From: Erysipelotrichaceae bacterium | Lineage (GTDB): Bacteria > Bacillota_I > Bacilli_A > Erysipelotrichales > Erysipelotrichaceae | Direction of reading: 5' to 3' | DNA: 32,000 nt | Assembly (NCBI GenBank): GCA_963676105.1 | Contig: OY781039.1 | Location: forward strand, 1,230,001-1,262,000 | In this document: positions 2,059 through 24,562 of the stretch, piece by piece | Position numbering within the stretch: position 1 is the first letter of the stretch | Layout: the number at the start of each line of letters is the position of its first letter | Notes under the pieces: generated by a model | Database searches by the model: none | Told to the model about the DNA's origin: nothing | What the model saw: the letters and a program-made list of their open reading frames with translations, nothing else | Program-made: the position numbers and the translations under genes

Positions 2059-2370
2059 TTATAACTTAATTTCGATATCTACACCGCTAGGTAGTTCTAA
2101 ACGACTTAGCGCATCAATTGTTGCGGTAGATGGACCCACGATCTCAATGAGACGTTTGTGAGTTCTTTGTTCGAATTGTTCACGTGAATCTTTGTACTTA
2201 TGTACAGCACGTAGAACAGTTACTACTTGTTTTTCAGTTGGTAGTGGAACTGGTCCGATAACTTTTTTAGAACCATTGTCTTCAGCAGCTTGTACAATTT
2301 TTTGAGTAGCTGTATCTAGACTTCTGTGTTCATAAGCTTTTAGACGAATACGAATACTATTCTTTGCCAT
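2059..2370 (-). CDS. rpsJ: 30S ribosomal protein S10
   Basis: 103-aa ORF ([19 protein letters not shown]...) canonical for S10. TAGGAGG SD upstream. First gene of the S10 operon. Confidence 0.97.
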
Positions 2371-2501
2371 GGTTAGCCTCCTATTAGCGCCTTTAAGAAT
2401 CCTTGTTCTTACGCAACGTACGAATAACCCGACTTGACACTGACCATGACAACGCTTATCAGTGTGTCAGCAACCTCTTACGTTTGAGCGTGCGCTTTAA
2501 A

Positions 2502-2530
2502 ATTATACTACCGCTACATATAAAAAGCAA
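2502..2530 (-). promoter_or_regulatory. Putative sigma-A promoter of the S10 operon (TTGCTT-17 nt-TATAAT)
   Basis: Minus strand reads TTGCTT (2530-2525), a 17-nt spacer, then TATAAT (2507-2502). The -35 overlaps the 3' arm of the gltA terminator hairpin. It leaves a ~125-nt leader before rpsJ. Confidence 0.6.
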
Positions 2531-2548
2531 GACCTTTTTTGTCTTGCT
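2519..2548 (-). terminator. Intrinsic terminator downstream of citrate synthase
   Basis: Minus-strand RNA AGCAAGAC-AAAAAAG-GUCUUGCU followed by UUUUUAUAU, 17 nt after the gltA stop. Confidence 0.75.
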
Positions 2549-2564
2549 TTAAATGACGTTTTAT

Positions 2565-3917
2565 CTAGCGTTCATCGATGTTTTTATAAGCTCGATGATC
2601 GCTTAAATTTATATACGCTGGACGCATGATTTTATCATCCAAAATTTGTTCTAAACGATGTGCTGACCAACCTGCAATTCGCGCAATCGCAAAGATAGGA
2701 GTTGTTAATTCTTGTGGAATATTTAACATCGATAGGACAAACCCCATATAGAAGTCAACATTAGCTGACACGCGATTATCAGATTTAACTTTAGAATTAA
2801 TCAATTCACAACCAATACGGTCTACATCTTCTAAGAACTTAAATTCTTTTGAGCGACCTTTATGTTTTGCTAATTCTTTAGCTTTCTCTTTAATAATCTT
2901 AGTGCGAGGATCAGATAATGTATAGACCGCGTGACCTAAACCATAGATAAGTCCTTTTTTATCATACGCTTCTTTATTTAAGATTTTTTGAAGATAAGCT
3001 CTTAACTCCTCTTCATTATCTTTATCCTTCACATGAGAACGAATATCTTTGATCATATCTGAAGTTGCTTTATTCGCTCCGCCGTGTTTTGGACCCTTAA
3101 GAGCACCAATAGCCGTAGAGATCGCTGAATATGTATCAGTACCAGTAGATGAAACTACATGGGTTGCAAAGGTTGAGTTATTACCACCACCGTGTTCTGC
3201 TTGAACGACGAGTAGTAAATCTAACATCTCAACTTCTTCACGAGTGTATTTCTTATCCGCTCTAACCATACGAAGAATATTAGCAGCAGTTCCAATCCCT
3301 TTTTGAGGGCGATGAACAATCAATGATTCATTGTGATATGCATGACGTTTTGCTTGATAACCATAAGCTGCAATGGTCGGTAGTTTCGCAATCAAGTTAA
3401 TGGATTGTTTTAGAACATTGTAAACCGAAATATCATCAGGGTTTTTATCGTAAGAATATAAGACAAGTATTGCTCTTTGTAGTTTATTCATAACGTTATT
3501 AGCGGGAATTTTCATAATGACATCTTCCTTATACCCTTTAGGAAGTGCTCGAGCTTCATCTAAGACTTGATTAAAATAATCGAGTTCAATGTGGTTAGGT
3601 AGTTTTGCGAACAATAGAAGGTAAACAATTTCTTCAAACCCTAAGCGATGATCTCTTTGAAATCCTTCCGCTAGTTCTGAAAGTGCGTAACCCCTATAGT
3701 AAACTTCACCTTCACACGGAACTTTGACACCATTTTCATTTAAATAGCCAACAACTTCACCAACTTTAGTTGCGCCAACTAAAACACCGGTCCCATTATC
3801 ATTTCTAAGACCGCGTTTAATATTGTGTTCTTTGTACAACGCATTATCAATCGTATTGTTTTGAAGGATTGCGTCAGCGTACTTTTCTAAGTTAGCTTCG
3901 AGTTTTCGTTGTGACAT
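2565..3917 (-). CDS. gltA: Citrate synthase (Si-type, GltA/CitZ family)
   Basis: 450-aa ORF with citrate synthase signatures (AEHGGGNNSTFA, GLGHAVYTLSDPR, the NVDFYMGF region). Last gene of the acn-icd-gltA cluster. Confidence 0.88.
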   Translation of the reverse strand: MSQRKLEANLEKYADAILQNNTIDNALYKEHNIKRGLRNDNGTGVLVGATKVGEVVGYLNENGVKVPCEGEVYYRGYALSELAEGFQRDHRLGFEEIVYLLLFAKLPNHIELDYFNQVLDEARALPKGYKEDVIMKIPANNVMNKLQRAILVLYSYDKNPDDISVYNVLKQSINLIAKLPTIAAYGYQAKRHAYHNESLIVHRPQKGIGTAANILRMVRADKKYTREEVEMLDLLLVVQAEHGGGNNSTFATHVVSSTGTDTYSAISTAIGALKGPKHGGANKATSDMIKDIRSHVKDKDNEEELRAYLQKILNKEAYDKKGLIYGLGHAVYTLSDPRTKIIKEKAKELAKHKGRSKEFKFLEDVDRIGCELINSKVKSDNRVSANVDFYMGFVLSMLNIPQELTTPIFAIARIAGWSAHRLEQILDDKIMRPAYINLSDHRAYKNIDER

Positions 3918-3929
3918 AATTCTCTTTCT

Positions 3930-4913
3930 TTAGTGAGATTGAATGAGTTCAATCATTTTCTGAGTATAAGCTTTGGTGTCGAGTGGTCCCTTTACATCTT
4001 TTGTAAATGTATTTGGATCACTGTAAATAACATCTAAGGCTTTTCTGATCTTTTCAGCTGCCTCTCTTTGATCTACATAATCAAGCATCAAACATGCACT
4101 AAGCAACATTGCAGATGGATTAGCTAAACCTTTGCCTGCAATATCTGGCGCAGTCCCATGAACTGCTTCAAAGATAGCACTGTCTTCACCTAAGTTGGCA
4201 GAAGGTACAAAACCTAAACCACCAATTAAGCCAGCACATAAATCAGATAAAATATCGCCATATAAGTTTTCAGTTAAGATAACATCAAATTGTGATGGAT
4301 CAATAACCAATTGCATACACATGTTGTCAACTAAGACTTCTGTGGTTTCAATGCTTGGATAATCTTTCGCAACTTCACGACAACTTTCTAAAAATAGACC
4401 GTCAGATAGTTTCATGATGTTTGCTTTTTGAACAATCGTAACTTTCTTACGATTATTATCTACCGCAAAATCATACGCAGCTTTAGCAATACGTTTAGAT
4501 GCTTTACGGGTAATAACTTTAATTGAATGGGCTGTATCTTCATCTATTTGTTCTTCGATACCAGCATATAAATCTTCTGTATTTTCTCTAAAGATGACTA
4601 AATCAACATCTTTAAAGCGAGTTGGAATAACCCCTAAATTTTTAACTGGACGAATATTGGCAAAAAGTTTAAATTCTTTTCTAAGTTGAACGTTTAGTGA
4701 TCTAAAACCTTTCCCAATCGGTGTCATGAGAGGTCCTTTTAAAGCAATCTTATTTTTTTGAATACTTTTTAGAACTTCGTCATTTAAGACGCCATTTTCA
4801 ACTTTTTGAATATCCCAAATAATATCTGCTTTTGCAGCTTCTAGAATTTCACGGACAGCCTGAGTAATTTCAGGACCAATTCCGTTGCCTTCGATTAATG
4901 TGACAACACTCAT
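3930..4913 (-). CDS. icd: NAD-type isocitrate dehydrogenase (isocitrate/homoisocitrate/isopropylmalate dehydrogenase family)
   Basis: 327-aa ORF with family motifs ([69 protein letters not shown]). Substrate is inferred from the acn and gltA neighbours. The ATGA overlap with acn implies translational coupling. Confidence 0.8.
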
Positions 4914-6829
4914 TTACTTGCCTCTTGTTTCGCAAAATTTAAGTAACCGCCTGCCATTAAAATTTCTTTTTCACGATCAGTTAGTTGAACCTTCACCATG
5001 ACATCTGTATCTTGAGTTAAATTACGAACCGCAAATTCATCCGTTGTTTTAATTGCTTCATGAATATTAGAGAATTCTAAGACATCTCCTTGTGCTACTT
5101 CGCCTGATACATATAAACAAGGAAGAATAGCCGCATTAATAAGATTGTTTCTGTGAATTCTCGCAAAGGATTTTGCGATTACAGCTTTAACACCTAAATA
5201 TAAAGGGATTAAGGCCGCATGTTCACGTGATGAACCTTGACCATAGTTATCACCACCAACAATCACACCACCATTATTGTCTTTAGCGCGTTGATAGAAA
5301 TCACGATCAGCACCATGGAAACAATATTCAGCTAATGCTGGAATATTAGATCTAAGTGGTAAGAGTTTTGCATAAGATGGAACAATATCATCGGTTGTGA
5401 TATTATCACCCACTTTAAGTGTAACAACTTCTTTAAATGTATCCGCTAAGGCTTTTGATTGTGGGAAAGGTTTAATGTTAGGTCCTGTGTAAATTTCTAC
5501 AGATGCAGGATCATCACTTGGCGGAATGATATAACCACCGACATTTCCAAATGAATCTAAATCATCAATTTTTAAATTAAGATCTAATTCTGTCACATCA
5601 CTTAATTCACCTTTAATCGCTGAGTAAGCAGCTGTTTCTGGTGATACTAAATAAACTTGAGCACTTTGTGTGCCTGAGCGTCCTTTAAAGTTACGATTGA
5701 ATGTTCGTAAAGAAACGGCGTCCGTACGTGGTGCTTGTCCCATACCAATACATGGTCCACATCCTGATTCTAGAATACGCGCCCCTGCTTTAATCATGTC
5801 AGCCAATGCGCCATTTTCAGAAATAAGTCTTAATATGTTAGCTGAACCAGGTGACACGACAAAGGATACATCTGGATGAACCGTTTTTCCTTTTAAGATA
5901 CGTGCGACTTTCATTAAATCTGCATAAGAAGAGTTTGTACATGAACCAATCGCAACTTGATCTACTTTTAAGCCTTTAACTTTGTCGACTGAGACAACGT
6001 TATCTGGCATATGAGGTTGCGCAACCATTGGAGTTAACTCACTCAAATCAATGGTAATTTTATTATCGTATTCTGCATCTGCATCAGCGACAAATTCAAC
6101 CCAATCTTGCTCACGATTTTGTTGTTTAAGGTATTTACGTGTATTTTCGTCTGATGGGAAAATTGACGTTGTTGCTCCAAGCTCGGCTCCCATATTTGTA
6201 ATCGTTGCACGATCTGTAACACTTAAGTACTTTAGACCTTCGCCGCTATATTCCATAACGTAGCCAACACCACCTTTAACAGATAATGTTTCAAGTACTT
6301 TTAAAATAATATCTTTACCATTAACAAATGATTTAGGTTGGCCGATTAGTTCAACATTAAACACTTTTGGTGATGGAATATAAACTTGTCCAGTTGCCAT
6401 ACCAACCGCAATATCAAGCCCACCCATACCAATGGCTAATGCTCCAATACCACCCGCATTTGGGGTATGTGAATCTGAACCGATTAATACTGTTTTTGGT
6501 TTAGCGAATTGTTCCAAGTGCACTTGGTGACAAATGCCTGACCCAGGTTTTGAATATACAATTCCGTGTTTTGCGGCAACAGATTGAATAAAGGCATGAT
6601 CATCAGCATTTTCAAAAGATGCTTGTAGTAAGTTGTGATCCACATAAGCCACAGACAAATCTGTTTGGACTTGTTGGATATCCATTGCTAAAAACTGTAA
6701 ATACGCCATAGTACCTGTCGTATCTTGCGTTAAAGTTTGATTAACTTTTAACTTTACTTCATTCCCAGGTGTTAAGTCACCAGAGATTAAATTCTGTTCT
6801 AATATTTTTTGTGTAAGTGATTTACCCAT
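4910..6829 (-). CDS. acn: Aconitate hydratase (~640-aa short aconitase family)
   Basis: 639-aa ORF with Fe-S aconitase motifs (GSDSHTPNAGG, AIGSCTNSS, CGPCIGMG) and a C-terminal swivel domain (GGDNYGQGSSREHAA). GGAGGA SD upstream. Confidence 0.88.
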   Translation of the reverse strand: MGKSLTQKILEQNLISGDLTPGNEVKLKVNQTLTQDTTGTMAYLQFLAMDIQQVQTDLSVAYVDHNLLQASFENADDHAFIQSVAAKHGIVYSKPGSGICHQVHLEQFAKPKTVLIGSDSHTPNAGGIGALAIGMGGLDIAVGMATGQVYIPSPKVFNVELIGQPKSFVNGKDIILKVLETLSVKGGVGYVMEYSGEGLKYLSVTDRATITNMGAELGATTSIFPSDENTRKYLKQQNREQDWVEFVADADAEYDNKITIDLSELTPMVAQPHMPDNVVSVDKVKGLKVDQVAIGSCTNSSYADLMKVARILKGKTVHPDVSFVVSPGSANILRLISENGALADMIKAGARILESGCGPCIGMGQAPRTDAVSLRTFNRNFKGRSGTQSAQVYLVSPETAAYSAIKGELSDVTELDLNLKIDDLDSFGNVGGYIIPPSDDPASVEIYTGPNIKPFPQSKALADTFKEVVTLKVGDNITTDDIVPSYAKLLPLRSNIPALAEYCFHGADRDFYQRAKDNNGGVIVGGDNYGQGSSREHAALIPLYLGVKAVIAKSFARIHRNNLINAAILPCLYVSGEVAQGDVLEFSNIHEAIKTTDEFAVRNLTQDTDVMVKVQLTDREKEILMAGGYLNFAKQEASK

Positions 6830-6852
6830 AAGTCCTCCATAATAATATGTTC

Positions 6853-6881
6853 TATTCTATGTGAATTAAGCTTTTTATTCA
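6853..6881 (-). promoter_or_regulatory. Putative sigma-A promoter of acn-icd-gltA (TTGAAT-17 nt-TAGAAT)
   Basis: Minus strand reads TTGAAT (6881-6876), a 17-nt spacer, then TAGAAT (6858-6853), about 24 nt upstream of the acn ATG. Confidence 0.6.
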
Positions 6882-6963
6882 ACTTATTCATTTTGAAACT
6901 TTACACACAATAAGTTTATGTTTTAATAAGGATAACGATTACATAAGACTAAGGAGATTTTTT

Positions 6964-8136
6964 ATGCGCTATGCGAGACGGACGAAATCAAGCACCTCAT
7001 CCATTTTTGATCTAATAATTGAACATTTAAAGGATCCAAATATGATTTCTTTTTCAGGTGGTTTTCCTGCCATTGACTTATTACCTCATGAAGCATTAGA
7101 TGAAGCTAGTCAACTTGTTTTTAAAAACGATAAACATAACGCCTTAACTTATAGTTCTACATGGGGCTATCAACCATTAAGAGAATGGATATCAAAACGC
7201 TATAAAGATTTATACGACATGGATATCAGTGCTGATGAAATATTAATCACGACTGGATCTCAACAAGCATTGGATTTAATTGGTAAAGTCTTCTTAGACC
7301 CAATGGATCATATTTTAGTTGAAAAACCGAGTTATCTAGGTGCACTTCAATCCTTTCAACTCTTTGAACCAAATATTCACGAAGTTAATTTAAATGATAA
7401 TGGTATGAATGTTAATATGTTTCGAACTTTCTTAAGGACCTATCATCCAAAACTAGTTTATACGGTTCCTAACTTTCAAAACCCTTCAGGTATTTCTTAT
7501 TCACTTGAAGTAAGACAAGAAATGGTTAAAGCAATGTCACCTTATGATGTCATTATGATAGAGGATGATCCTTATGGAGATTTCAGATATGCTGGTGAAA
7601 CAGTTGCTCATTTCAAAAAACTCGCACCAGATCGAACTATTCTTTTAGGAAGTTTTTCAAAAATTATTGCGCCAGGTCTAAGAATTGGTTGGGTCACAGC
7701 TCCAAAAGAAGTCTTAGAAAAGTTATATACTGCTAAAGAAGCTTGTGACTTACATAGTTCTAATTTAGATCAACGAATCATTTATCAATATTTAGTAAAC
7801 AATGATTTAGATAAACATATTGAAAATGCAAAACGTAAATATAAAGATAACCAAGAAATCATGTTGAAAGCGATTAAGAAATATTTCCCAAGCAATATAA
7901 AAGTTGCCAAGTCAGAAGGTGGTATGTTTCTATGGTGTACAGGGCCCTATAACTTGGATGTTATGGAGTTATTTAATAAAGCTATTGTCCTACACGTTCT
8001 GATAATGCCAGGCACACCTTTCTATGCTTCAAGTCCTGAACCTAATACCTTTAGATTGAATTTTACAAATGTTAGCACTCAACAAATTGAAGAAGGGATA
8101 TCTAATTTAGGTGCCATCATTAAAGGAATGATATAA
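6964..8136 (+). CDS. PLP-dependent class I/II aminotransferase (2-aminoadipate/glutamate transaminase LysN-like family)
   Basis: 390-aa ORF with fold-type I motifs (TTGSQQALDL, VPNFQNPSG, EDDPYGDFRY, and SFSKIIAPGLRIGW containing the PLP Lys). AAGGAG SD upstream. Divergent from acn. Confidence 0.8.
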   Translation: MRYARRTKSSTSSIFDLIIEHLKDPNMISFSGGFPAIDLLPHEALDEASQLVFKNDKHNALTYSSTWGYQPLREWISKRYKDLYDMDISADEILITTGSQQALDLIGKVFLDPMDHILVEKPSYLGALQSFQLFEPNIHEVNLNDNGMNVNMFRTFLRTYHPKLVYTVPNFQNPSGISYSLEVRQEMVKAMSPYDVIMIEDDPYGDFRYAGETVAHFKKLAPDRTILLGSFSKIIAPGLRIGWVTAPKEVLEKLYTAKEACDLHSSNLDQRIIYQYLVNNDLDKHIENAKRKYKDNQEIMLKAIKKYFPSNIKVAKSEGGMFLWCTGPYNLDVMELFNKAIVLHVLIMPGTPFYASSPEPNTFRLNFTNVSTQQIEEGISNLGAIIKGMI

Positions 8137-13385: not shown

Positions 13386-14342
13386 TTAATTTCTAGGTTT
13401 TTTAAACAAATCGAAGATAATATATGACACAATACCGGCAATTGGCCAAATAATCCATGTAATATGCCAATCAAAAGTGAGAAAACTCCATAAAAGATAA
13501 ACTGCTGTAATAATTAACCAAAATAAGGTTTCAAATGGTTCTTTCTTTTGTCTAAATAAGCGTTGTTCCTCAGTATATTCTCCAATTCTTAGAATAACAT
13601 CTAATATCTTTTTAACATTCGCTGTATAAACAATCATTCCTACGCCTATTGAAATAATCAAGAACATTAGCGCAACTAGATTAATTAATGTACTTTGTGG
13701 CCATTGTAGTATTCCACCAAAAATTAATGGAACAAAGCTAACAATAAACAACATGATCGCAACAGCTAGATATACTGCATGATTGCGGTTGTGTTGTTTG
13801 GATTCTTCCTTAACAACATTAATAACGCCATACTCTAATTTATATTCTGCTTTTTCTAAGTATTCATATTCTTTCATTCTTAAGTTCGTCACAATGATGG
13901 TTCCAACACCAACTGCGATGAGTCCAAACATACTAACTAATCCTAATGCTGAGTAGAAAGGTGAGTAAAATGTATCAAATTGACTTAAAATGATCATCGG
14001 TGCAACAGATATGACAAGTGCTGAAACTGCAAATGCCATAAACTTAGAATAAATTTTTCGCTTTTCAATACCTTCTCTAACTTCTTCTAATGTAACACGT
14101 CTAATACCATTGCCTTCTGTATCTGTTTTCATGTCATAGGTTTCAACTTCATCTTTTAATAAGTAATCCGTTGAAACACCAAAGAATTCAGAGAGTTGTA
14201 GAATACGATTCATATCTGGGATACTCATGGCTGATTCCCATTTTGATATGGATTGACGTGAAACGCCCAACTTTTCAGCTAATTCTTCTTGTGAGATATC
14301 CATCTCTTTACGTAGTTTATATATTTTATCGGCTAGTAACAT
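13386..14342 (-). CDS. XRE-family helix-turn-helix protein with a C-terminal polytopic membrane domain
   Basis: The likely start is the ATG at 14342 ([43 protein letters not shown] = Cro/C1 HTH) with an AAGGAGG SD. The C-terminal ~200 aa holds about 6 hydrophobic helices. The tracked ORF start at 14420 has no SD. Confidence 0.8.
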
Positions 14343-14445
14343 AATGTTTGCCTCCTTACGCTTAAATTCTAAGGTTTTGCATAGTTGCATACTAGCAAGT
14401 CTACCTTGAAATGTACGCAACTACTGGTTGCACATTCAGTTTAAC

Positions 14446-14487: not shown

Positions 14488-17400
14488 CTACTCTTCTGTT
14501 TGTTCTTCGCGAGAATCACGTAGCATTTCAGGTGGCAAGCTTTGGGCTTCTTCTTCCATGATTCGATTACGTTCATCACGATCCTCTTTCATTTCAGCAG
14601 CCATTTCTTCGATACGTACGCTACTTTCTCTTTCAGCAAATGAGCCTGTTCCAGCAGGAATCTTCTTACCAATAATAACGTTTTCTTTTAGACCCATTAA
14701 GTGATCCACTTTACCTTTGATAGCGGCATCCGTAAGAACTTTAGTTGTTTCTTGGAAGGAAGCAGCTGATAGGAATGAATCAGTTTCAACAGATGACTTA
14801 GAAATACCTAAGAGAACTGGTTTGAATTTCGCAGGACGTTTGCCTGATAGTAGAGCTTTACGGTTAAGGTTAGTAATATTTGCTAGAGATAATTGGATAC
14901 CAGCACTTAAGTGTGTATCTTGTCCATCTGTAACAACCACTTTACGCATCATTTGTTTAACCATGACTTCGATGTGTTTGTCAGAGATTTCAATCCCTTG
15001 GCTTTGATATACTTTCTTAACTTCTTTCATGATGTACTCTTGAACTGCATGTACACCACCAACTTCTAAGAGTTCCTTAGGATCGATATGATCTTCAGTG
15101 AGTTTATCACCCGCTTCAATTTCATAACCCTCTTTAATCCATGGACGGATATGTTGGGTCATTGATGCGAAGTGTTCAACTGACTCTTTTTCATTGGTAA
15201 CAACAATCTTCATCAATAAGTCTTTATTACCACGAGATTCTTGTTCTGTGGATTTGAAGGATTCTAAATCACGAATGTTTTGGAACTTAGATTCTTCGTT
15301 GTTGATGACAGATAATAAGTATGAATAGATATTTGGGTCAACCCCTTCAATTGAAGTGATTGTACCTGAGATTTTTGAGAGTAATGCAGGTTTTTTAGGA
15401 CGACGAGCTTCGAAAAGTTCTTCAACACGAGGTAAACCTTGTGTGATATCCCCTCCGTCACCACCAGCAACCCCACCAGTATGGAAGGTACGCATGGTTA
15501 ATTGAGTACCAGGTTCCCCAATGGATTGGGCAGCCATGATACCGACAGCTTCACCGATTTCAACTTCTTTACCAGTTGCCATATTACGTCCGTAACATTT
15601 CTTACAAACACCATATGTCGCATCACATGTAAATACATTACGGATAACCGCTGATTTAACACCAGCTTCAACAACTGCTCGAGCTTGAGCTTCAGTGACT
15701 AAGGTATCACCTTCAACTAAAACTTCTCCAGTTGTCGGATGAATAATATCATCTTTTAGTGTACGACCAATTAATCGATCATAGATGGATTCAATAACGG
15801 TGTTGGTCTTACGATCAACGATATCTTGAATCACTTCACCACGATCTGTTCCACAATCTTCTTCTGAAATCATGACATCTTGAGCAACGTCGACTAAACG
15901 ACGTGTTAGATAACCAGACTCAGCCGTTTTTAGCGCCGTATCGGTTAGACCTTTACGCACACCGTGAGTGGAAATAAAGAATTCAGACACGTTTAGACCA
16001 TGTCTAAATGAGGAGTAAATAGGAACTTCGAAGATTGAAGTGATATATTTACGTTCACGAATCGCTTCAGTTTTAACTGCGTCATACGTCTCAACAGCAC
16101 CTGAATCTACACTATGACTAACATCGTTATCTTTAATTTCAAGGAATCTGTTATAGCTTAGTTTATTTGAATCAATCAGTTTTTTCGCTAACTCGTAGAA
16201 ACCATTTTCTAGATCTAAATCATTTTTATTGAGTAGATCTAATTCTTCTTGCGTTAAGTGTTTTAAGATACGTTCACTTTCAGCTTGAATGAGTTTTTTA
16301 GATTTTGCGATCAATTCACGACGTTGATACTTCGCGATAAGTTCTGGCGTAATCTTTTCTTCTTCTAGAAGTCCATCCACCACTTGGTTAATTAACTGCA
16401 TATCCTTACCTTTAGCTTCCGCTAAAATTTGGTGTTGGATAGGACCGAGTAATGGTGTAATTTCATCAGCGCTTGAAACAAGCATTTCAATGATAATTGA
16501 ACGATACTCTAAATCTTCCAAGAAAGCTTCATCAACACGATTGTTTTGTACAAGTGTAGTGGCAGCCATCGGAATTGACTTACGAGTTAAGCTATCAACA
16601 TCAATATATTCTTTAATTGTTTCAATGAGTGTATAGTTGCGTGCTTCTAAGAAGCTAACTGTCTTCTCAATAAGTGCTTTGATGTTTTGGAATGTTTCTA
16701 AATCTTCTAAAGAGAAACGGTTCGTGTCTAAGAGTGAATCAGATAAAGTTTTAATTGTTTCAGCTTTTGATTTTTTATCTTTAGCGCCAACTAATAAATC
16801 TTTTTCTTCTTCAGATAAACGATCTAAGATCATTTCATCACTTACTTTTAGACCATCAACGATAACTGTTCTGAGTTCTGCACGATCAAGAATGTTTTGA
16901 GTTAAAGCTTCACTACCCATGAGTTCATCAACCATTGGTTTGATTTCTTCAGCACGTTGTTTTTTGCCTTTAACAGTCGCAAGAACGAGTTGATCATCTT
17001 CAGATAATAGATTTGTGATTTCTTCTGTACCTAAGGTTAGGTGTTCTGTAAGTAGAGCACGTTTTTCTTTACGTAAATCACCTTCAAGTTTTTGAAGTTC
17101 AGACATTGTGACACGGTTCTCATCAACAAGATGTTCAGCCAATGTATTAATGTATTCTTCACGATTTGCCTTAAGGGTACGTAAACCATCTACATCACGG
17201 TTTGCGGTAAGGTTCTTGATGAATGGATTTTCTTTTTCAAGATGACGTTTCAACAATTCAGGAACACTCATAGCCATATGTGCTTGGTGTAAATGTTTGA
17301 TGTTGAGTTCATCACCATTCATTAAGTTAAGCGCAAACTCTTTAAGTTCTGCATGATTCTTAGATTTGTTAATAAGTTTGAGTTGTTGAATTTGTTCAGA

Positions 17401-20271
17401 ACTTAAAACTTCTAAGATCATTTCAGTTTCACGAGCGAGAAGTTCCATCAAGGTTAAACGTAATTGACGTGTAATTTCTGCTTTGTGCAATTTTTCTTCA
17501 CTAATACGATCTTCTGATACTAAACGATGAGCTAAAGCACGATAAGCTTCGGCTTTTTCTTTCGCATTATCAATCGCTTTTAATGATTTAGTTTCAGCCG
17601 CATTAACTGCTTTGAAGATTTCAGATGAACCTTCATTTAAGAGGTCTAAAACTAACGCTTGTTTTTCTTTGTTGGATGTTGCTTTACGTAAGATTTCATC
17701 TAGACCTTCTTTTTTGCGACGGTCGATAAAACTTTCCGCAACATACAATAAGTATTCATCATACTCAGATGCATCATCAATACTACTTAAACGCATTCTT
17801 TCATCTGAAGGAATGAACTCATCTAAGTTACCCCATTCGATAAGTTCTTTTACTTTATCGACAAGAGGTTCGAAGTTCTTAGTAACATCCTCAGATTCAT
17901 ATTGTTGTAGGATATCGCCAGCAGATGCAGCTTTGAATGGTTTACCCATCAATCCACGTGTACCAGCAAGTTGTGTAAAGTGAGATGCATTACCACGCGC
18001 ACCTGAGATTTTCATCATATTAATTGGATTTTTACGTGGAAGATGTGCTTCTAAGTCTTTTCCAATTTCAGATTTAATTCTATCCCAAAGTAGGGTTACA
18101 TGACGTTCCCATTCACGTGGTGTTAAACGACCACGTTGACGTAGTGACATGAGTTCTGATTCTTTAACCTTACCGTCTTCAACTAACTTGTTTGTATTAG
18201 GTGAAACAACGATATCAGCCAAGGCAACAGTCATACCTGCAACCGTAGAATATTTGAATCCATTGTCTTTAATTTGGTCTAAGATTTGTGAAGTTTTTGA
18301 AGTTCCATAACGGGCAAAGACTTCAGAAATAATGGTTCCTAAATCTTTCTTCTTAACATCACTGGATAAAGGCAATGCTTTTACTGCTTCTTTGACATTT
18401 TGTCCTGGCGCAACGAAATAACGTTGTGGAGTCGCAATAAAGTTTTCTTTAGTGACTTCGTTAATATATGGGAAATCACTTGGGAACATTTCATTTAAGA
18501 TTAACTTACCAACAGTGGTAATTACGAAACTTGCATTTTGTTCAGCTGTGAAAGCATCTTTGTTTAAAGACTTAGCTTTAACTGCTACACGTGAGTGTAA
18601 GTGAACTTGTTTAGCTTCATAAGCCATGATTGCTTCGTTAGTATCTCTAAAGACACGTCCTTCGCTCTCACCAAATTGTTGCCATTTATCAGCTTCTTCA
18701 TGATCACCTAAGGCTCTCATTAAAGCAGCTTTTTCAAAGAATTCGTCAGCGCTTTCTTCCATGGATAGGTAGAAGTTACCCATAACCATATCTTGAGAAG
18801 GTGTAACGATAGGTTTACCATCTTTTGGTCCTAGAATGTTATTAGAACCTAACATCAAGACTTCAGCTTCAGCACGAGCTGCTTCTGAAAGTGGTACGTG
18901 AACCGCCATTTGGTCACCATCGAAGTCAGCATTAAATGCTGGAGTAACGAGTGGGTGAAGACGAATAGCACGTCCTTCTACGAGTTTTGGTTTAAATGCT
19001 TGGATACCTAGTCTATGTAGAGTAGGCGCACGGTTTAATAGAACTGGGTGATCTGCGATAACATCATCGACGATATCCCAAACACGCTCATCTTGTCTTT
19101 CAATAAGCTTTTCAGCTGATTTCGGATTAGATGAAATACCACGATAAACGATTTCGTTGATAACGAAAGGTTTGAAAAGTTGGATAGCCATTTCACGTGG
19201 AATACCACATTCAAACATCTTAAGATCTGGTCCAACAGCGATAACTGAACGACCTGAGAAGTCAACACGTTTACCTAGTAAGTTTTGACGGAAACGACCT
19301 TGTTTACCTTTTAAGCTATGCGAAAGTGATTTTAAGGCACGACCACCAGCACCGGTAACAGCTTTAGAACGACGACCGTTGTCAATTAAAGCATCAACCG
19401 CTTCTTGAAGCATACGTTTTTCATTTTGTACGATAATCGCTGGTGTACCCATATCAATGAGTTTACGTAAACGATTATTACGAGTAATAACACGACGGTA
19501 TAAATCATTTAAATCAGATGTTGCGAAACGTCCACCATCAAGTTGTAGCATTGGACGTAAATCTGGTGGGATAACTGGAAGGATAGAAAGAACCATCCAT
19601 TCAGGTTTATTGTCAGAATTACGGAATGCTTCAATGGTTTCTAAACGTTTGATAAGTTTCTTGCGTTTGTCACCATGGGCATCTTTTAGGCTTTCTAAAA
19701 CATCTTTATGATCTTGTTCAAGATCAACTCTTTCTAAAAGATCTAAGACCGCTTCAGCACCTGTCTTTGCGACAAATGAACCAAAGCCATAACGACGAGA
19801 GTAGTTACGATACTCTTGTTCAGATAAAATTTGCTTAGCTTGAAGAGGTGTTGTTCCTGGATCAATGACAACCCAAGAAACGAAGTATACAACTTCTTCT
19901 AAGTTTTTAGGTGTAATCCCAAGAAGCAATGACATACGACTTGGAATACCACGTAGATACCAAATATGGGCAACAGGCGCTGCCAATTCGATATGACCCA
20001 TACGTTCACGACGGACACTTGATTTTGTAACTTCAACGCCACATCGATCACAGACTACGCCTTTATAACGGACCTTTTTATATTTACCGCAATAACATTC
20101 CCAGTCTTTTGATGGACCGAAAATACGTTCACAAAATAAACCATCACGTTCAGGTTTTTGGCTACGGTAATTTATAGTCTCAGGTTTTTTAACTTCACCA
20201 TGAGACCACTCACGGATTTGATCAGGTGAGGCTAATCCGATTTGAATGGATGAGAAATTGTTTATGCTCAT
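14488..20271 (-). CDS. rpoC: DNA-directed RNA polymerase subunit beta-prime, 1927 aa, carrying a ~634-aa lineage-specific insertion
   Basis: Zn ribbon [35 protein letters not shown], catalytic [12 protein letters not shown], bridge helix [26 protein letters not shown] and trigger loop [11 protein letters not shown] are all present in one uninterrupted frame. AGGAGGG SD upstream. Confidence 0.98.
16078..17619 (-). repeat. Eight tandem diverged ~61-67-aa protein repeats inside the rpoC insertion (protein-level periodicity, not DNA-level)
   Basis: Units start at aa 885, 952, 1018, 1085, 1148, 1216, 1271 and 1335. Each starts with Ile, as in I-L/T-x-x-L-S/T-x-E-E-x-x-L-L. About 30 aa later each has x-L-(V/L/M/I)-(D/S/N/G/E/Q)-x-(N/D/E)-(R/K/A/E)-(V/I/F/L)-(S/T/D/N)-x-x-x-L-x-x-x-(E/Q/H/K). 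Examples: [51 protein letters not shown]. Confidence 0.8.
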
Positions 20272-20286: not shown

Positions 20287-23200
20287 CTACTCTTCATCGC
20301 CGCTTGGCGCAAGATCGTCATCTGCACCGACTACTGCGGCTTCTGCGATAAATTCATCGTCGTTCACAAGTTCATTAGTTGATGTTAAGTTCACATCATA
20401 GTCAGCACTTGTGTCTTCGACTTCCATCTTCTTAATATCGACTTCATCGCCATCATCGCTTAATAATTTTACGTCGATAGCTAAAGCATTTAATTCATGT
20501 TTAAGCACTCTGAATGATTCTGGAACACCAGGTTCTGGAATATCTTTACCTTTAATAATGGCTTCATAGGTTTTTGTACGACCCATGATGTCATCGGATT
20601 TAATGGTTAAGATTTCTTGTAGGGTATGAGATGCCCCATAAGCTTCAAGTGCCCAAACTTCCATTTCCCCGAAACGTTGACCACCATTTTGTGCTTTACC
20701 ACCTAATGGTTGTTGCGTAACAAGTGAGTAAGGACCTGTTGCACGTGCATGTAGTTTATCGTCAACCATGTGAGCTAACTTAATCATGTACATGACACCG
20801 ACTGAAATTCTTTCATCAAATGGTTCACCGGTACGTCCATCATAAAGAATGGTTTTACCGTCTTCTGCCATTTCAGCTTCAGCCATAATTTCTTTAAGTT
20901 CTTCGTTGTTGATACCATCGAAAACTGGTGTAGCGAATTTAACACCAAGTTTTTGCGCTGCAAAACCTAGGTGAATTTCAAGTACTTGCCCAATGTTCAT
21001 ACGTGATGGAACACCAAATGGGTTCAACATAATATCAACTTGTGATCCATCAGGTAGGAATGGCATATCTTCAACCGGTAAGATTTTAGAGATAACCCCT
21101 TTATTACCGTGACGTCCAGCCATTTTATCCCCTTCAGAGATTTTACGTTTTTGAACGATATAAATTTTAACAACTTCATTGACACCTGGAGGTAAGTCGT
21201 GTCCTTCAGAACGTTTGAAGATTCTGATTGATTGAACAATACCGCTACCCCCATGTGGAACTTTAAGCGAGTTATCGCGTACTTCACGTGATTTATCACC
21301 AAAGATTGCGAGTAATAATTTTTCTTCAGGAGAAATTTCAGATTGACCCTTAGGTGTAACTTTACCAACTAAGACGTCACCTTCTTTAACTTCTGCCCCA
21401 ATCATAACAATCCCGCGTGCATCTAAGTGTCTGCAAGATTCTTGGGATACGTTAGGAATATCACGTGTGATTTCTTCAGGACCAAGCTTAGTATCACGAA
21501 CTTCAATATCATATTCTTCAATATGGATTGAGGTATATACATCTTCTTTAACAAGACGCTCACTCATGATAACCGCATCTTCGTAGTTATAACCATACCA
21601 GGTCATAAATGCGATACGTACGTTTTGACCTAAAGCCAATTCACCATCTTCCATCGCAGGTCCATCAGCTAAGATGTCACCACGATTAACCATTTCACCT
21701 TTACGTACTAAAGGTTTTTGGTTGATACATGTTCCTTGGTTAGAACGTTTGAATTTTTGTAGGTGATAAACTTTTTCACCAAAATCACCTGTTGTGACAA
21801 TCTTATTGGCATCAACATAAGTAACCATACCCTGTTGAGTTGCGGTTACAGCTGAACCTGAGTCACGAGCGATACGGTGTTCAATACCTGTTCCAACATT
21901 TGGTGAATGTGGACGTAGTAGAGGAATTGCTTGACGTTGCATGTTAGCACCCATTAAGGCACGTGATGCATCATCGTTTTCTAAGTAAGGAATACATGCA
22001 GTCGCAACCGAAACAATTTGTTTCGGACTAACGTCTGCCAATTCTACATTTTCTTTTTTAGTTAAGATATGGTCGCCTTTAAAACGAACAACAACTTCAT
22101 CGTTGATGAGTTTTCCATCCATAACTTCATTCGCTTGAGCAATGTAGTAATCACGTTCATCATCAGATGATAAGTAAATAACATCTTCACTAACATTTCC
22201 ATCTTTATCGACGATACGATATGGCGTTTGAATGAAACCATATTCATTTACACGTCCATAAGAAGTTAAGTTAGAAATCAGACCAATGTTTGGTCCTTCA
22301 GGTGTTTCAATCGGACAGATACGGCCATAGTGACTTGAGTGAACATCACGAACTTCAAAGCCAGCACGCTCACGAGTCAAACCACCTGGACCTAAAGCTG
22401 AAATACGACGTTTATTAGTCAACTCAGCAAGTGGATTGGTTTGATCCATAAATTGTGATAATTGAGATGAAGAGAAGAACTCTTTAATCGCCGCAGTTAA
22501 AGGACGAATATTCGTTAGAGTTTTTGGGGTTAAGTTTGTAAAGTCAGTAATAGACATACGCTCTTTAACAACTCTTTCCATACGACTTAAACCGATACGG
22601 AATTGGTTTTGAATAAGTTCCCCTACGGTACGGATACGACGGTTACCAAGTTGATCGATATCATCTGTTTCGCCCACACCATCTTGTAGGTTTAATAGGT
22701 AATCAAAAGAAGCAATCATATCACTCATGGTGACTGTTTTCTTAATCATAAGTGGGTCAGTACCAATCGCACGAACCACTTTAGTGCTTTCCTTAGCGTA
22801 AACTTCTAAAGTTTGAACCGCTGCCCCAATTAACCAAGCATTAACAGTTGTTTTACCGTTAACCGCATTAACTAAAGCTTGTTCTTGATCAGATTTAAGT
22901 TTAGAAATTTGTGTATCAGGCATATAACGATCAACTAAGAGTTCGCCACTTGAAGTTAAAACATCTTGATCTTTCGCTGTAATACGACCTAAGACAAATA
23001 GACGCTGACCATAATTTAAGACAGCACGAACATTGGTTTTATCTAATTCCACTTTACGTGCAATTAATCCACCAAAGATTTCAATTTCTGAGAATGTTTT
23101 TGCGATCGCATCAACATCTTTTTCATTTAAGACTGTACCAGCTGTGAAATCAGTACCTGGTAAATCATCCGCTAAGATACGACCAATTAAAGCAGGTTTA

Positions 23201-24462
23201 ATCTTAGTTGATACAGTTACGTTTTCAGGGTAAGCAAATAAGGAATTAAATGGATAAGCCTCCATGTATAAACCTTTTGCCATATTTTCTTGAAGAATAA
23301 CTTTTTCTTTACGATCAACTAATGTATCTTTCGCTAAGACTACATTACCGTTTTCATCTAAAACATCTTGAGCTAAGACGTTATTGATCATACGGTTTGT
23401 GATACCTAATTTTTTACCAAGTTTAAAACGACCAGCACGTGTTAAGTCATAACGACGTGCATCAAAGAATTTTGCACGCATGAGGTTGATCGCACCTTCT
23501 TCAGTTGCGATTTCGTCACTACGTTGGTTGTTGTAGATTTCGTAAAGTGCTTCTTTAGTTGTTTTGACTTTATCTGATACTAAAGTATTGATAACTTCTG
23601 GGTACTCACCAAAGAATGCAGTATATAGAAGTAAGTAAATGTTTAAAAACTCACTTGGTTCAACTTCCATAAACAAGTCATAAACAGGTAAGTTTAATGC
23701 TTGTAGGAAGATTTTAAAAGCTGATGTATCAAAGGCATCTTCACCACGTTCTAAATCAAGTGAAAAACCGATCGCTTTGAATAGGATGGTTGATAAGATT
23801 TTACGTTTACGATCGATAGACACATTTAAGTGGAAATCGGATGTCGCTTGTGATGTATTTTCACCGGTATAAGTGACTTGAGGTGTACTGGTTTTCTTAA
23901 ACGCAGTCATGAACTCTAACCATGTCCCACGTGATGGGATGAGTTCACTCTTGTAAACCTCTTCTAAGTTCGCATCTTTATCCTTCATATAGAAAGAGTC
24001 ATAGTATGCACCTGGTGAACGTACGATTTGAGAAACAATTACACGTTCCGCTCCATTAATAATGAAGGTACCAGTATCTGTCATTAAAGGGAATTCTCCT
24101 AAGAAAACTTCTTCATGACGTTCAGTGATTTCACCTGTTGTAGGATTTGTCATTTCTAACATCATCGTCGCTTTTAAAGGCGCCGCAAAGTTAGCTTCTC
24201 TTTCCTTACATTCAGGGACTGAATATTTTGGCTCTGCGAATTCATATTTTAAGAAGTTTAAGCGAATGTTTCCGGTATAGTTAGTAATCGGATAAATCTC
24301 TTGAAAAACTTCTTGAATTCCTTCGTTTTTAAACCAATCAAATGAGTCCGTTTGGATCTCAACTAGATCGGGCAATTCTAAGCTACCGCTGACTTTTGAG
24401 TAATCTCTACGCTTTGCTTTGTTACCAAATTCAAGTACGCGATATGTCTTGTTTTTTTCCAT
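20287..24462 (-). CDS. rpoB: DNA-directed RNA polymerase subunit beta (about 1391 aa)
   Basis: Canonical beta motifs are present: the Rif cluster [34 protein letters not shown], plus GRHGNKGV and NMQRQA. The likely start is the ATG at 24462 ([13 protein letters not shown]) with GAAAGGA 8 nt upstream. The tracked ORF begins at a TTG at 24489 with no SD. Confidence 0.97.
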
Positions 24463-24562
24463 TAATGCCATCCTTTCAAAGTTAAACAACGACTAAAATG
24501 GGCATGTTATCCCATTCTATCATTATTAGTTTTATGCAATATATAATACTATCAAATCAGTT

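Follow-up and report, generated by a model that had tools for sequence, protein, structure and literature searches.

A lineage-specific tandem-repeat insertion, predicted to be all-α, at the F-loop tip of the RNA polymerase β′ subunit of uncultured Erysipelotrichaceae

The rpoC gene for the β′ subunit of RNA polymerase (RNAP) was analysed in a 32,000-nucleotide stretch of an Erysipelotrichaceae genome (contig OY781039.1, positions 1,230,001 to 1,262,000, assembly GCA_963676105.1; hereafter the window), and found to carry an extra segment of 634 amino acid residues (aa 779-1412). This segment is best explained as a lineage-specific insertion of RNAP β′, fixed in a clade of uncultured Erysipelotrichaceae. 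According to sequence alignment, it replaces residues D751-S753 of Escherichia coli β′ at the very tip of the F-loop, and probably comprises nine tandem units of about 65 aa, preceded by an N-terminal anchor of 39 aa and followed by a C-terminal anchor of 14 aa. The repeat array is genuine and ancient, has a fixed length and is under purifying selection. As a kind, the lineage-specific RNAP insertion is already known; what is new is the site in the F-loop (β′ domain uD4), the orphan repeat fold, predicted to be all-α, and the scale.

After Pfam scanning of the whole β′ sequence, the Rpb1 domains 1-5 were all detected, with no domain at aa 784-1424. The closest sequence in PDB, Bacillus subtilis β′ (6wvj_D), was aligned to the window β′ in four blocks, leaving three gaps at aa 508-535, aa 779-1412 and aa 1645-1686. 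The second of these, the insert described here, lies between the blocks of aa 536-778 and aa 1413-1644, and B. subtilis residues 754 and 758 border the gap. The insert is thus an extra segment between conserved segments, and array-less relatives align across the junction. For the assignment of the site, L774, M775, G776, K777 and P778 were aligned with E. coli L746-P750 and I1413 with I754; since P778 matches P750 and I1413 matches I754, it is D751-S753 that the insert takes the place of.

The corresponding stretch of the F-loop is taken out by the Taq ΔFL deletion (1044-1056) (PMC3874190). In a cryo-electron microscopy study of 2026, the module of rim helices and F-loop was found to close onto the folded trigger loop each time a nucleotide is added; in E. 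coli, F-loop residues L746, M747, A748, G752 and I754 contact trigger-loop residues G939-A941, R943 and T1131 (Table 1 of PMC13342826). SI3, the 188-residue insertion in the E. coli trigger loop, moves together with that loop (PMC13342826). In the window β′, the trigger loop is uninterrupted and the insert is located about 180 residues upstream, in the F-loop. Because the residues flanking the F-loop insertion point contact trigger-loop residues R943 and T1131, which border SI3 in E. coli, the array would leave the enzyme where SI3 does, but from the partner loop.

A preliminary description of the insert, made by reading the sequence by eye, had proposed eight helical units with a two-part consensus. 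All the motif strings quoted there were present at the residues given, the eight starts (aa 885, 952, 1018, 1085, 1148, 1216, 1271 and 1335) are all Ile, the nucleotides 16078-17619 correspond to aa 885-1398, and the second motif, described as recurring every 60-69 aa, was measured at intervals of 66, 65, 69, 63, 60, 61 and 64 aa. The repeat signal is beyond compositional bias, standing far above both shuffled and reversed controls. In Smith-Waterman comparison of unit with unit, z-scores against shuffles reached 7.5, while hhalign comparison of unit profiles built from orthologues gave alignments in register with scores up to 41.5, and 19 of the 36 unit pairs exceeded every value of the column-shuffled null (mean 10.0, standard deviation 2.1, maximum 18.2). 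In a leave-one-out test with hidden Markov models (HMMs), in which each model was scored on the omitted unit, units 1-5 reached 20-43 bits and units 6-8 reached 8-10 bits; all eight scored higher than 300 shuffles, and reversed sequences stayed at 0-3 bits. Gapless autocorrelation was borderline because the unit length varies (at lag 63, z = 3.5, just short of the 95% shuffle maximum, 3.58). The unit HMM covered aa 819-1398 in nine back-to-back full-length matches, and matched nowhere else in the window.

The eight units were confirmed, but the count is probably one short. The first 105 or so residues of the insert (aa 779-884), previously considered non-repetitive, consist of the N-terminal anchor and a probable degenerate ninth unit at aa 818-884, which was aligned with unit 1 by hhalign (score 31.5, probability 79-87%); we call it only probable since its leave-one-out score is weak (4.6 bits), 12 of 300 shuffles scoring as high or higher. 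The N-terminal anchor is not significantly repeat-like (hhalign 9.0, null maximum 11.2), nor are the 14 residues at the C-terminal end, and the candidate arrangement in which this anchor and the C-terminal tail form a split tenth unit found no support, with scores of 9.0-9.9 against null maxima of 11-13. As to the claim that the units share no identity at the DNA level, Tandem Repeats Finder detected no tandem array, but a family of 35-nucleotide sequences of 63-74% identity is present at four unit starts. The ancient origin of the duplication was borne out, the paralogous units being about 20% identical and the orthologous ones 40-66%.

The column profile of the unit, built from 36 units of four lineages, supports an array of tandem helical units of about 55-68 aa with a two-part consensus. 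Motif 1, I-h-x-L-L-S/T-x-D/E-E...L, is followed by a basic loop at unit positions 17-21, and motif 2 reads L-V/I-D-E-N-R-h-S/T-x-E-x-L-x-K-A-E. Two helix N-caps, S/T-x-D/E-E and N-R-h-S/T-x-E, are included in this profile, together with a hydrophobic skeleton at positions 1, 4, 5, 13, 16, 25, 28, 32, 33, 38, 43, 46, 52, 55/56 and 59/60. The AlphaFold2 model of the whole insert is all-α, with the same helix pattern in each unit, namely, a short turn helix and then helices of 9, 16-17 and 18-27 residues, the basic loop following the 9-residue helix (topology was read from DSSP strings alone). From insert residue 593 onward, the predicted local distance difference test score (pLDDT) falls below 50. 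The model of units 4-5 reached a pLDDT of 89.8 and a predicted template modelling score (pTM) of 0.74, with the inter-unit junction above 90. The confident junction and the absence of insertions or deletions (indels; see below) fit a rigid body, and the array may be described as a rigid acidic helical domain; of the two arrangements previously suggested, a solenoid or beads on a string, a rigid array fits the two-unit pTM and the absence of indels better than beads do.

Thirteen array sequences were collected in all. Scanning of GTDB with one genome for each species gave eight loci, all labelled as Erysipelotrichaceae metagenome-assembled genomes (MAGs), and JGI metagenomes gave a further four. 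Protein search with the insert as query yielded only two partial proteins, both from MAGs, and among 1.84 billion representative proteins searched exhaustively with HMMER no carrier was found outside the clade's own rpoC fragments. The array was found only in Erysipelotrichaceae MAGs and metagenome contigs, and is in frame in all 13 cases. The sequences represent three lineages of uncultured Erysipelotrichaceae, with 52-68% identity between lineages and 52-88% overall. The preliminary description had called for a comparison of repeat number among related genomes and had supposed that selection maintains the array: the insert is exactly 634 aa in all 13, with zero indels, and the ratio of nonsynonymous to synonymous substitution rates (dN/dS) is 0.114 between the window and locus L001 and 0.085 between loci L002 and L008, as compared with 0.035-0.067 for the flanking core segments. 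Between subclades, identity is 52-54% for the insert and 81-87% for the core; within the insert, it is 79% for both anchors and 40-66% for the units. All the inserts are acidic (net charge -19 to -35, isoelectric point (pI) about 5), yet the basic loops KGKKQR, KDKKxK, RKKKEG and KGK are invariant across lineages, and the third helices carry long invariant charged stretches. The constant length, the low dN/dS and these invariant loops and charged stretches together indicate an old array of fixed architecture under functional constraint.

The unit fold is an orphan, for which no convincing relative was found. Pfam search of the insert, its sub-fragments and 18 units gave only scattered chance matches, the unit profile matched nothing significantly among PDB sequences (best E 0.11, a saposin), and Foldseek found no match for the whole-insert model in PDB or for the two-unit model in PDB and BFVD. 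None of the known α-solenoid repeats (TPR, HEAT, ARM, PPR, ANK, Sel1 and mTERF) was matched by Pfam, by PDB sequence (E < 0.1) or by Foldseek, and the unit length of about 65 aa is outside their range of 30-47 aa. The HMMER search gave three hits, of which two are the same-clade rpoC fragments and the third is protein P0005 (E 5e-5), whose 39.1 bits compare with at most 9.5 for shuffles. P0005 is one of a family of 49 proteins (including P0141-P0188), of which one member is labelled Clostridia; the P0005 gene (positions 2209-3294 of locus L013) lies between rny and ymdB, and its neighbours rny, ymdB and spoVS fit a spore-forming Firmicute. The family members examined carry five or more tandem HTH_23 (helix-turn-helix, HTH) repeats with a junction 'L-I-x-x-G-R-I-T-x-E-E-I'; no source supplies a functional name for the family.

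Like the array, the P0005-family proteins are built of tandem helical units, of about 57-62 aa, and both share the junction motif L-I/V-x-x-G/N-R/K-I/V-S/T-x-E-E-I/L-x-x-A; in both unit types, 40 aa separate the initial Ile from the R-h-S/T turn. The P0005 proteins are, however, free-standing and bear bona fide HTH signatures, which the rpoC units lack: no Pfam HTH model matched any of the 18 units at E up to 10. The similarity covers 26-29 columns (the G/N-R-I-S/T turn with the end of the helix before it and the beginning of the one after; probability 51-71%) and does not reach the first two helices, the alignment of the unit with 45 HTH repeats by hhalign covering columns 22-47 only, at a probability of 51%. 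Since the match stayed within 26 columns even with deeper profiles on both sides, we do not regard the units as established homologues of the HTH-repeat proteins. The P0005 match is a lead on the origin of the array, and could represent a convergent capping motif.

Array-less β′ sequences were searched for with a junction-spanning query from which the insert had been removed. The best matches were only 62-63% identical, as against 81-87% for the flanking core within the clade, and none of the 83 hits in which both junction motifs were located has a large insert at the junction. Fifteen of these 83 related β′ fragments (P0006, P0008 and 13 others) carry a short extension of 9-10 aa at the F-loop tip, such as TQSKSKKEYQSS or GHAKAGAGEYVPT, the latter in the context KP-GHAKAGAGEYVPT-IIEVP. 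The two ends of the short extension resemble those of the insert (FKAASAGD…KYITS), which suggests that the array arose within a pre-existing short extension; the tip of the F-loop is thus a place where length has changed repeatedly within this part of the Firmicutes.

The preliminary description knew of no analogue for such an array next to the RNAP active site. This is too strong, since RNAP inserts of tandem modules are well known, SI3 itself being built of SBHM/HABAS tandem repeats (PMC11515920), but it holds for the F-loop site and for the orphan fold. SI3 (also β′In6 or β′i6; E. coli and cyanobacteria) is, like the array, a large lineage-specific insertion of tandem copies of one module; in cyanobacteria it has nine additional modules and is similar to the array in size (PMC11515920). 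SI3 rides a mobile catalytic loop in each nucleotide-addition cycle (PMC13342826) and the array is likewise attached to one; when the enzyme is closed, the two insertion points meet in van der Waals contact, F-loop G752 and I754 touching trigger-loop R943 and T1131. They differ in that SI3 is in the trigger loop and β-rich whereas the array is in the F-loop and predicted to be all-α, with neither sequence nor structural similarity between them. Actinobacterial β′i1, the one helical precedent confirmed here, is, like the array, a lineage-specific β′ insertion of α-helices only (PMC5511352); it is, however, a single antiparallel two-helix hairpin of about 90 residues near β′ residue 140 on the clamp (PMC5511352), non-repetitive and outside the catalytic loop, in contrast to the repetitive array in the F-loop.

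The survey of Alvarez-Carreno et al. in 2024 lists seven locations of β′ inserts, in bD2, bD4, bD5, uD5, bD6 and bD7, none of them in uD4, which comprises the rim helices, F-loop and bridge helix; nearly all the surveyed inserts are of the HABAS (SBHM), BEAN or sLC folds and none of the listed folds is a helical repeat (PMC11515920). With these catalogued inserts the array shares its place between conserved segments, its agreement with phylogeny and its duplication, which is frequent among them. An F-loop insertion is thus absent from the β′ sites listed in 2024 (the catalogue of Lane and Darst of 2010 was not directly compared), and our literature searches found no rpoC insertion in Erysipelotrichia. 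Firmicute RNAPs have been cited as the smallest and least decorated, essentially without β′ inserts (bioRxiv 10.1101/2021.06.06.447298).

By analogy with SI3, this lineage-specific F-loop insertion may act as a rigid accessory domain, a proposal to which we give an even chance or slightly less. Its point of projection would be that of SI3, beside the jaw on the downstream and secondary-channel face, and it would move with the catalytic F-loop as SI3 does with the trigger loop, thereby tuning closure of both loops and, through it, elongation rate, pausing and cleavage. A straight rod of nine units is impossible because both ends of the insert return to the tip of one β-hairpin and the flexible return linker is of about 18 residues; the array must then fold back on itself, and we infer a compact or closed form, with the conserved helices at its N- and C-terminal ends as anchors. 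The large conserved surface of the array would be open to contact by the jaw or β lobe, by downstream DNA or by a partner protein, and the array might dock on the jaw and β lobe, so setting the stability of the closed active site. In the array-bearing clade the jaw appears to have gained an insertion of its own of 40 aa, and this is a possible docking partner. The wider proposal, that the array represents an undescribed class of RNAP accessory domain, a rigid nine-unit orphan α-repeat in the F-loop acting as a built-in regulator of the closing motion and possibly co-evolved with inserts in the jaw and β lobe, is put forward tentatively. Several points weigh against this accessory-domain role. 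The position of the array on RNAP comes from sequence alignment, and the likeness to SI3, a β-fold inserted in the trigger loop, is one of position only. The whole-insert model is of moderate confidence (pLDDT 65, pTM 0.45) and was made with a three-sequence alignment, while the alignment for the two-unit model consisted of consecutive paralogous unit pairs. The net charge of -19 to -35 speaks against generic DNA binding, although with the conserved basic loops such binding may still occur, and the co-occurrence of jaw insert and array counts as a single evolutionary event.

Two other explanations concern the role of a genuine array. It may be mainly a binding platform derived from HTH repeats, its nine units, each with a conserved basic loop, lining up to bind downstream DNA, nascent RNA or an acidic or basic partner protein, with any effect on catalysis incidental. 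That the tandem HTH_23 protein P0005 was the sole hit outside the clade, that the 40-aa distance from Ile to the R-h-S/T turn is common to both unit types, that the basic loops are invariant across lineages and that E. coli SI3 and βi4 have been proposed as a clamp for downstream DNA (PMC5511352) all agree with such a platform, but the profile similarity remained short and did not grow with deeper profiles, neither Pfam HTH models nor Foldseek against PDB gave an HTH or any other match, and the array is strongly acidic; on balance, we think this unlikely. Slightly more doubtful is a functionless array, inserted by chance in a tolerant loop, duplicated, and then kept because an unfolded or truncated 72-kDa appendage would poison the enzyme, a case of constructive neutral evolution. 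The tolerance of the F-loop tip for extensions (9-10 extra residues in 15 of the 83 related fragments), the faster evolution of the insert than of the core and the lack of relatives are as would be expected from it. On the other side, a dN/dS near 0.1 is well removed from neutrality, the 634 columns are free of indels in three lineages down to 52% identity, the long invariant charged runs, presumably at the surface, go beyond the needs of fold maintenance, and the co-occurring jaw insertion suggests co-adaptation.

That the insertion is outside the mature enzyme, as an assembly artefact, an intein or a mobile element within rpoC, could be argued from its size and missing annotation only, and is hardly credible. 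The in-frame insert is present at identical position and length in 13 independent assemblies, including two complete chromosomes of about 2 Mb; no Hint or intein domain of Pfam was detected, and the junctions rule out protein splicing, the insert starting with F779 and ending in ...YITS (S1412) before I1413; no DNA repeats flank the insert; and the coding frame is under purifying selection. We regard all three as excluded by the assemblies, the junction residues, Pfam, the absent flanking repeats and selection. Of the readings considered, that of a rigid accessory domain on the F-loop is the one we prefer. The features of the window β′ gene are listed in Table 1.

Table 1. Positions of the rpoC gene, the insertion with its units, and neighbouring elements of β′ in the window
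Feature	β′ residues (aa)	Window position	Strand	Evidence and remarks
rpoC (β′ subunit)	1927 aa	14488..20271	minus	Open reading frame (ORF) list and translation; Pfam Rpb1 domains 1-5; match to B. subtilis β′
Whole insertion	779-1412 (634 aa)	16036..17937	minus	72.6 kDa, pI 4.96, net charge -35; unaligned gap between B. subtilis 754/758; no Pfam family
N-terminal F-loop arm	767-778	17938..17973	minus	E. coli β′ Q739-P750; B. subtilis alignment stops at aa 778; numbering from PMC13342826, PMC3874190
N-terminal anchor	779-817	17821..17937	minus	Two predicted helices; 79% identity between subclades, most conserved part of insert; not repeat-like
Unit 0 (probable degenerate ninth repeat)	818-884	17620..17820	minus	hhalign vs unit 1 31.5; leave-one-out HMM 4.6 bits
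Unit 1	885-951	17419..17619	minus	Leave-one-out HMM 42.9 bits vs shuffle maximum 12.8
Unit 2	952-1017	17221..17418	minus	Leave-one-out HMM 23.3 bits
Unit 3	1018-1084	17020..17220	minus	Leave-one-out HMM 37.3 bits; most conserved unit between subclades (66%)
Unit 4	1085-1147	16831..17019	minus	Leave-one-out HMM 30.4 bits; hhalign vs unit 5 probability 95%; in two-unit model
Unit 5	1148-1215	16627..16830	minus	Leave-one-out HMM 20.7 bits; in two-unit model
Unit 6 (short, without basic loop)	1216-1270	16462..16626	minus	Leave-one-out HMM 8.2 bits, above all 300 shuffles; hhalign vs unit 4 23.4
Unit 7	1271-1334	16270..16461	minus	Leave-one-out HMM 9.4 bits, above all shuffles
Unit 8 (third helix truncated, low-confidence linker at end)	1335-1398	16078..16269	minus	Leave-one-out HMM 9.9 bits, above all shuffles
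C-terminal anchor	1399-1412	16036..16077	minus	79% identity between subclades; predicted helix at insert residues 619-629
C-terminal F-loop arm	1413-1427	15991..16035	minus	E. coli I754 onward; B. subtilis alignment restarts at aa 1413
Bridge helix	1428-1465	15877..15990	minus	Sequence; presumed from established knowledge of β′
Trigger loop	1593-1623	15403..15495	minus	Gap-free alignment to B. subtilis; no SI3-type insertion
Insertion in jaw hairpin (about 40 aa)	1644-1687	15211..15342	minus	Gap vs B. subtilis 984/989; absent in P0140; kept in array-bearing lineages checked

Other parts of this RNAP also carry segments beyond those of B. subtilis. A helical insertion of about 30 aa at aa 508-538 (window 18658-18750, minus strand) is common to the array-less sister-lineage β′ P0140, and is considered older than the array for this reason. 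P0140 (ENA, 1308 aa) is probably a chimeric assembly: its first 460 or so residues resemble E. coli β′, and the rest is Erysipelotrichaceae-like. The β′ C-terminus (aa about 1881-1927; window 14488-14628, minus strand) is a highly acidic, Glu-rich tail of about 45 aa past the region aligned to B. subtilis. In the β subunit of 1400 aa (rpoB; window 20287-24489, minus strand), two segments at aa about 200-292 (about 90 aa) and about 407-558 (about 150 aa) were unaligned to B. subtilis β, so that the β lobe region bears extra segments as well.

The gene order around rpoC, nusG, rplKAJL, a methyltransferase gene, rpoB, rpoC, rpsL, rpsG, fusA and tuf, is typical of Firmicutes. Between rpoC and rpsL there is an ORF of 344 aa (window 13386-14420, minus strand) with an XRE-type HTH at the N-terminus and a hydrophobic, probably membrane-spanning C-terminal part; a link of this gene with the array was rejected because, of the array-bearing lineages, only the window and L001, its closest relative, have the gene. 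At window 2565-8136, between tuf and rplC/rplD, the genes for citrate synthase, isocitrate dehydrogenase and aconitase (minus strand) and for an aminotransferase (plus strand) are situated, and they break up the customary neighbourhood of the str-S10 operons.

That the F-loop cycles together with the trigger loop in each step of nucleotide addition is a recent finding, and CBR and AAP inhibitors are directed at this loop (PMC13342826). Here is a natural enzyme that tolerates, and has long kept, a structured load of 72 kDa on this loop, and the array thus provides a ready-made probe of how far F-loop motion matters. To the catalogue of inserts, in which two β-rich modules have prevailed until now, it adds a new insertion site (β′ uD4, F-loop) and a repeat fold predicted to be all-α, and for structure determination it offers a new orphan repeat family; the array-bearing clade is a striking exception among the sparsely decorated RNAPs of Firmicutes. 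A load on the F-loop is likely to surprise RNAP specialists, for whom it is a natural test of the recently proposed active-site motions, and, if the SI3-like role is true, the array would show accessory mass tuning catalysis in parallel to SI3 on the trigger loop.

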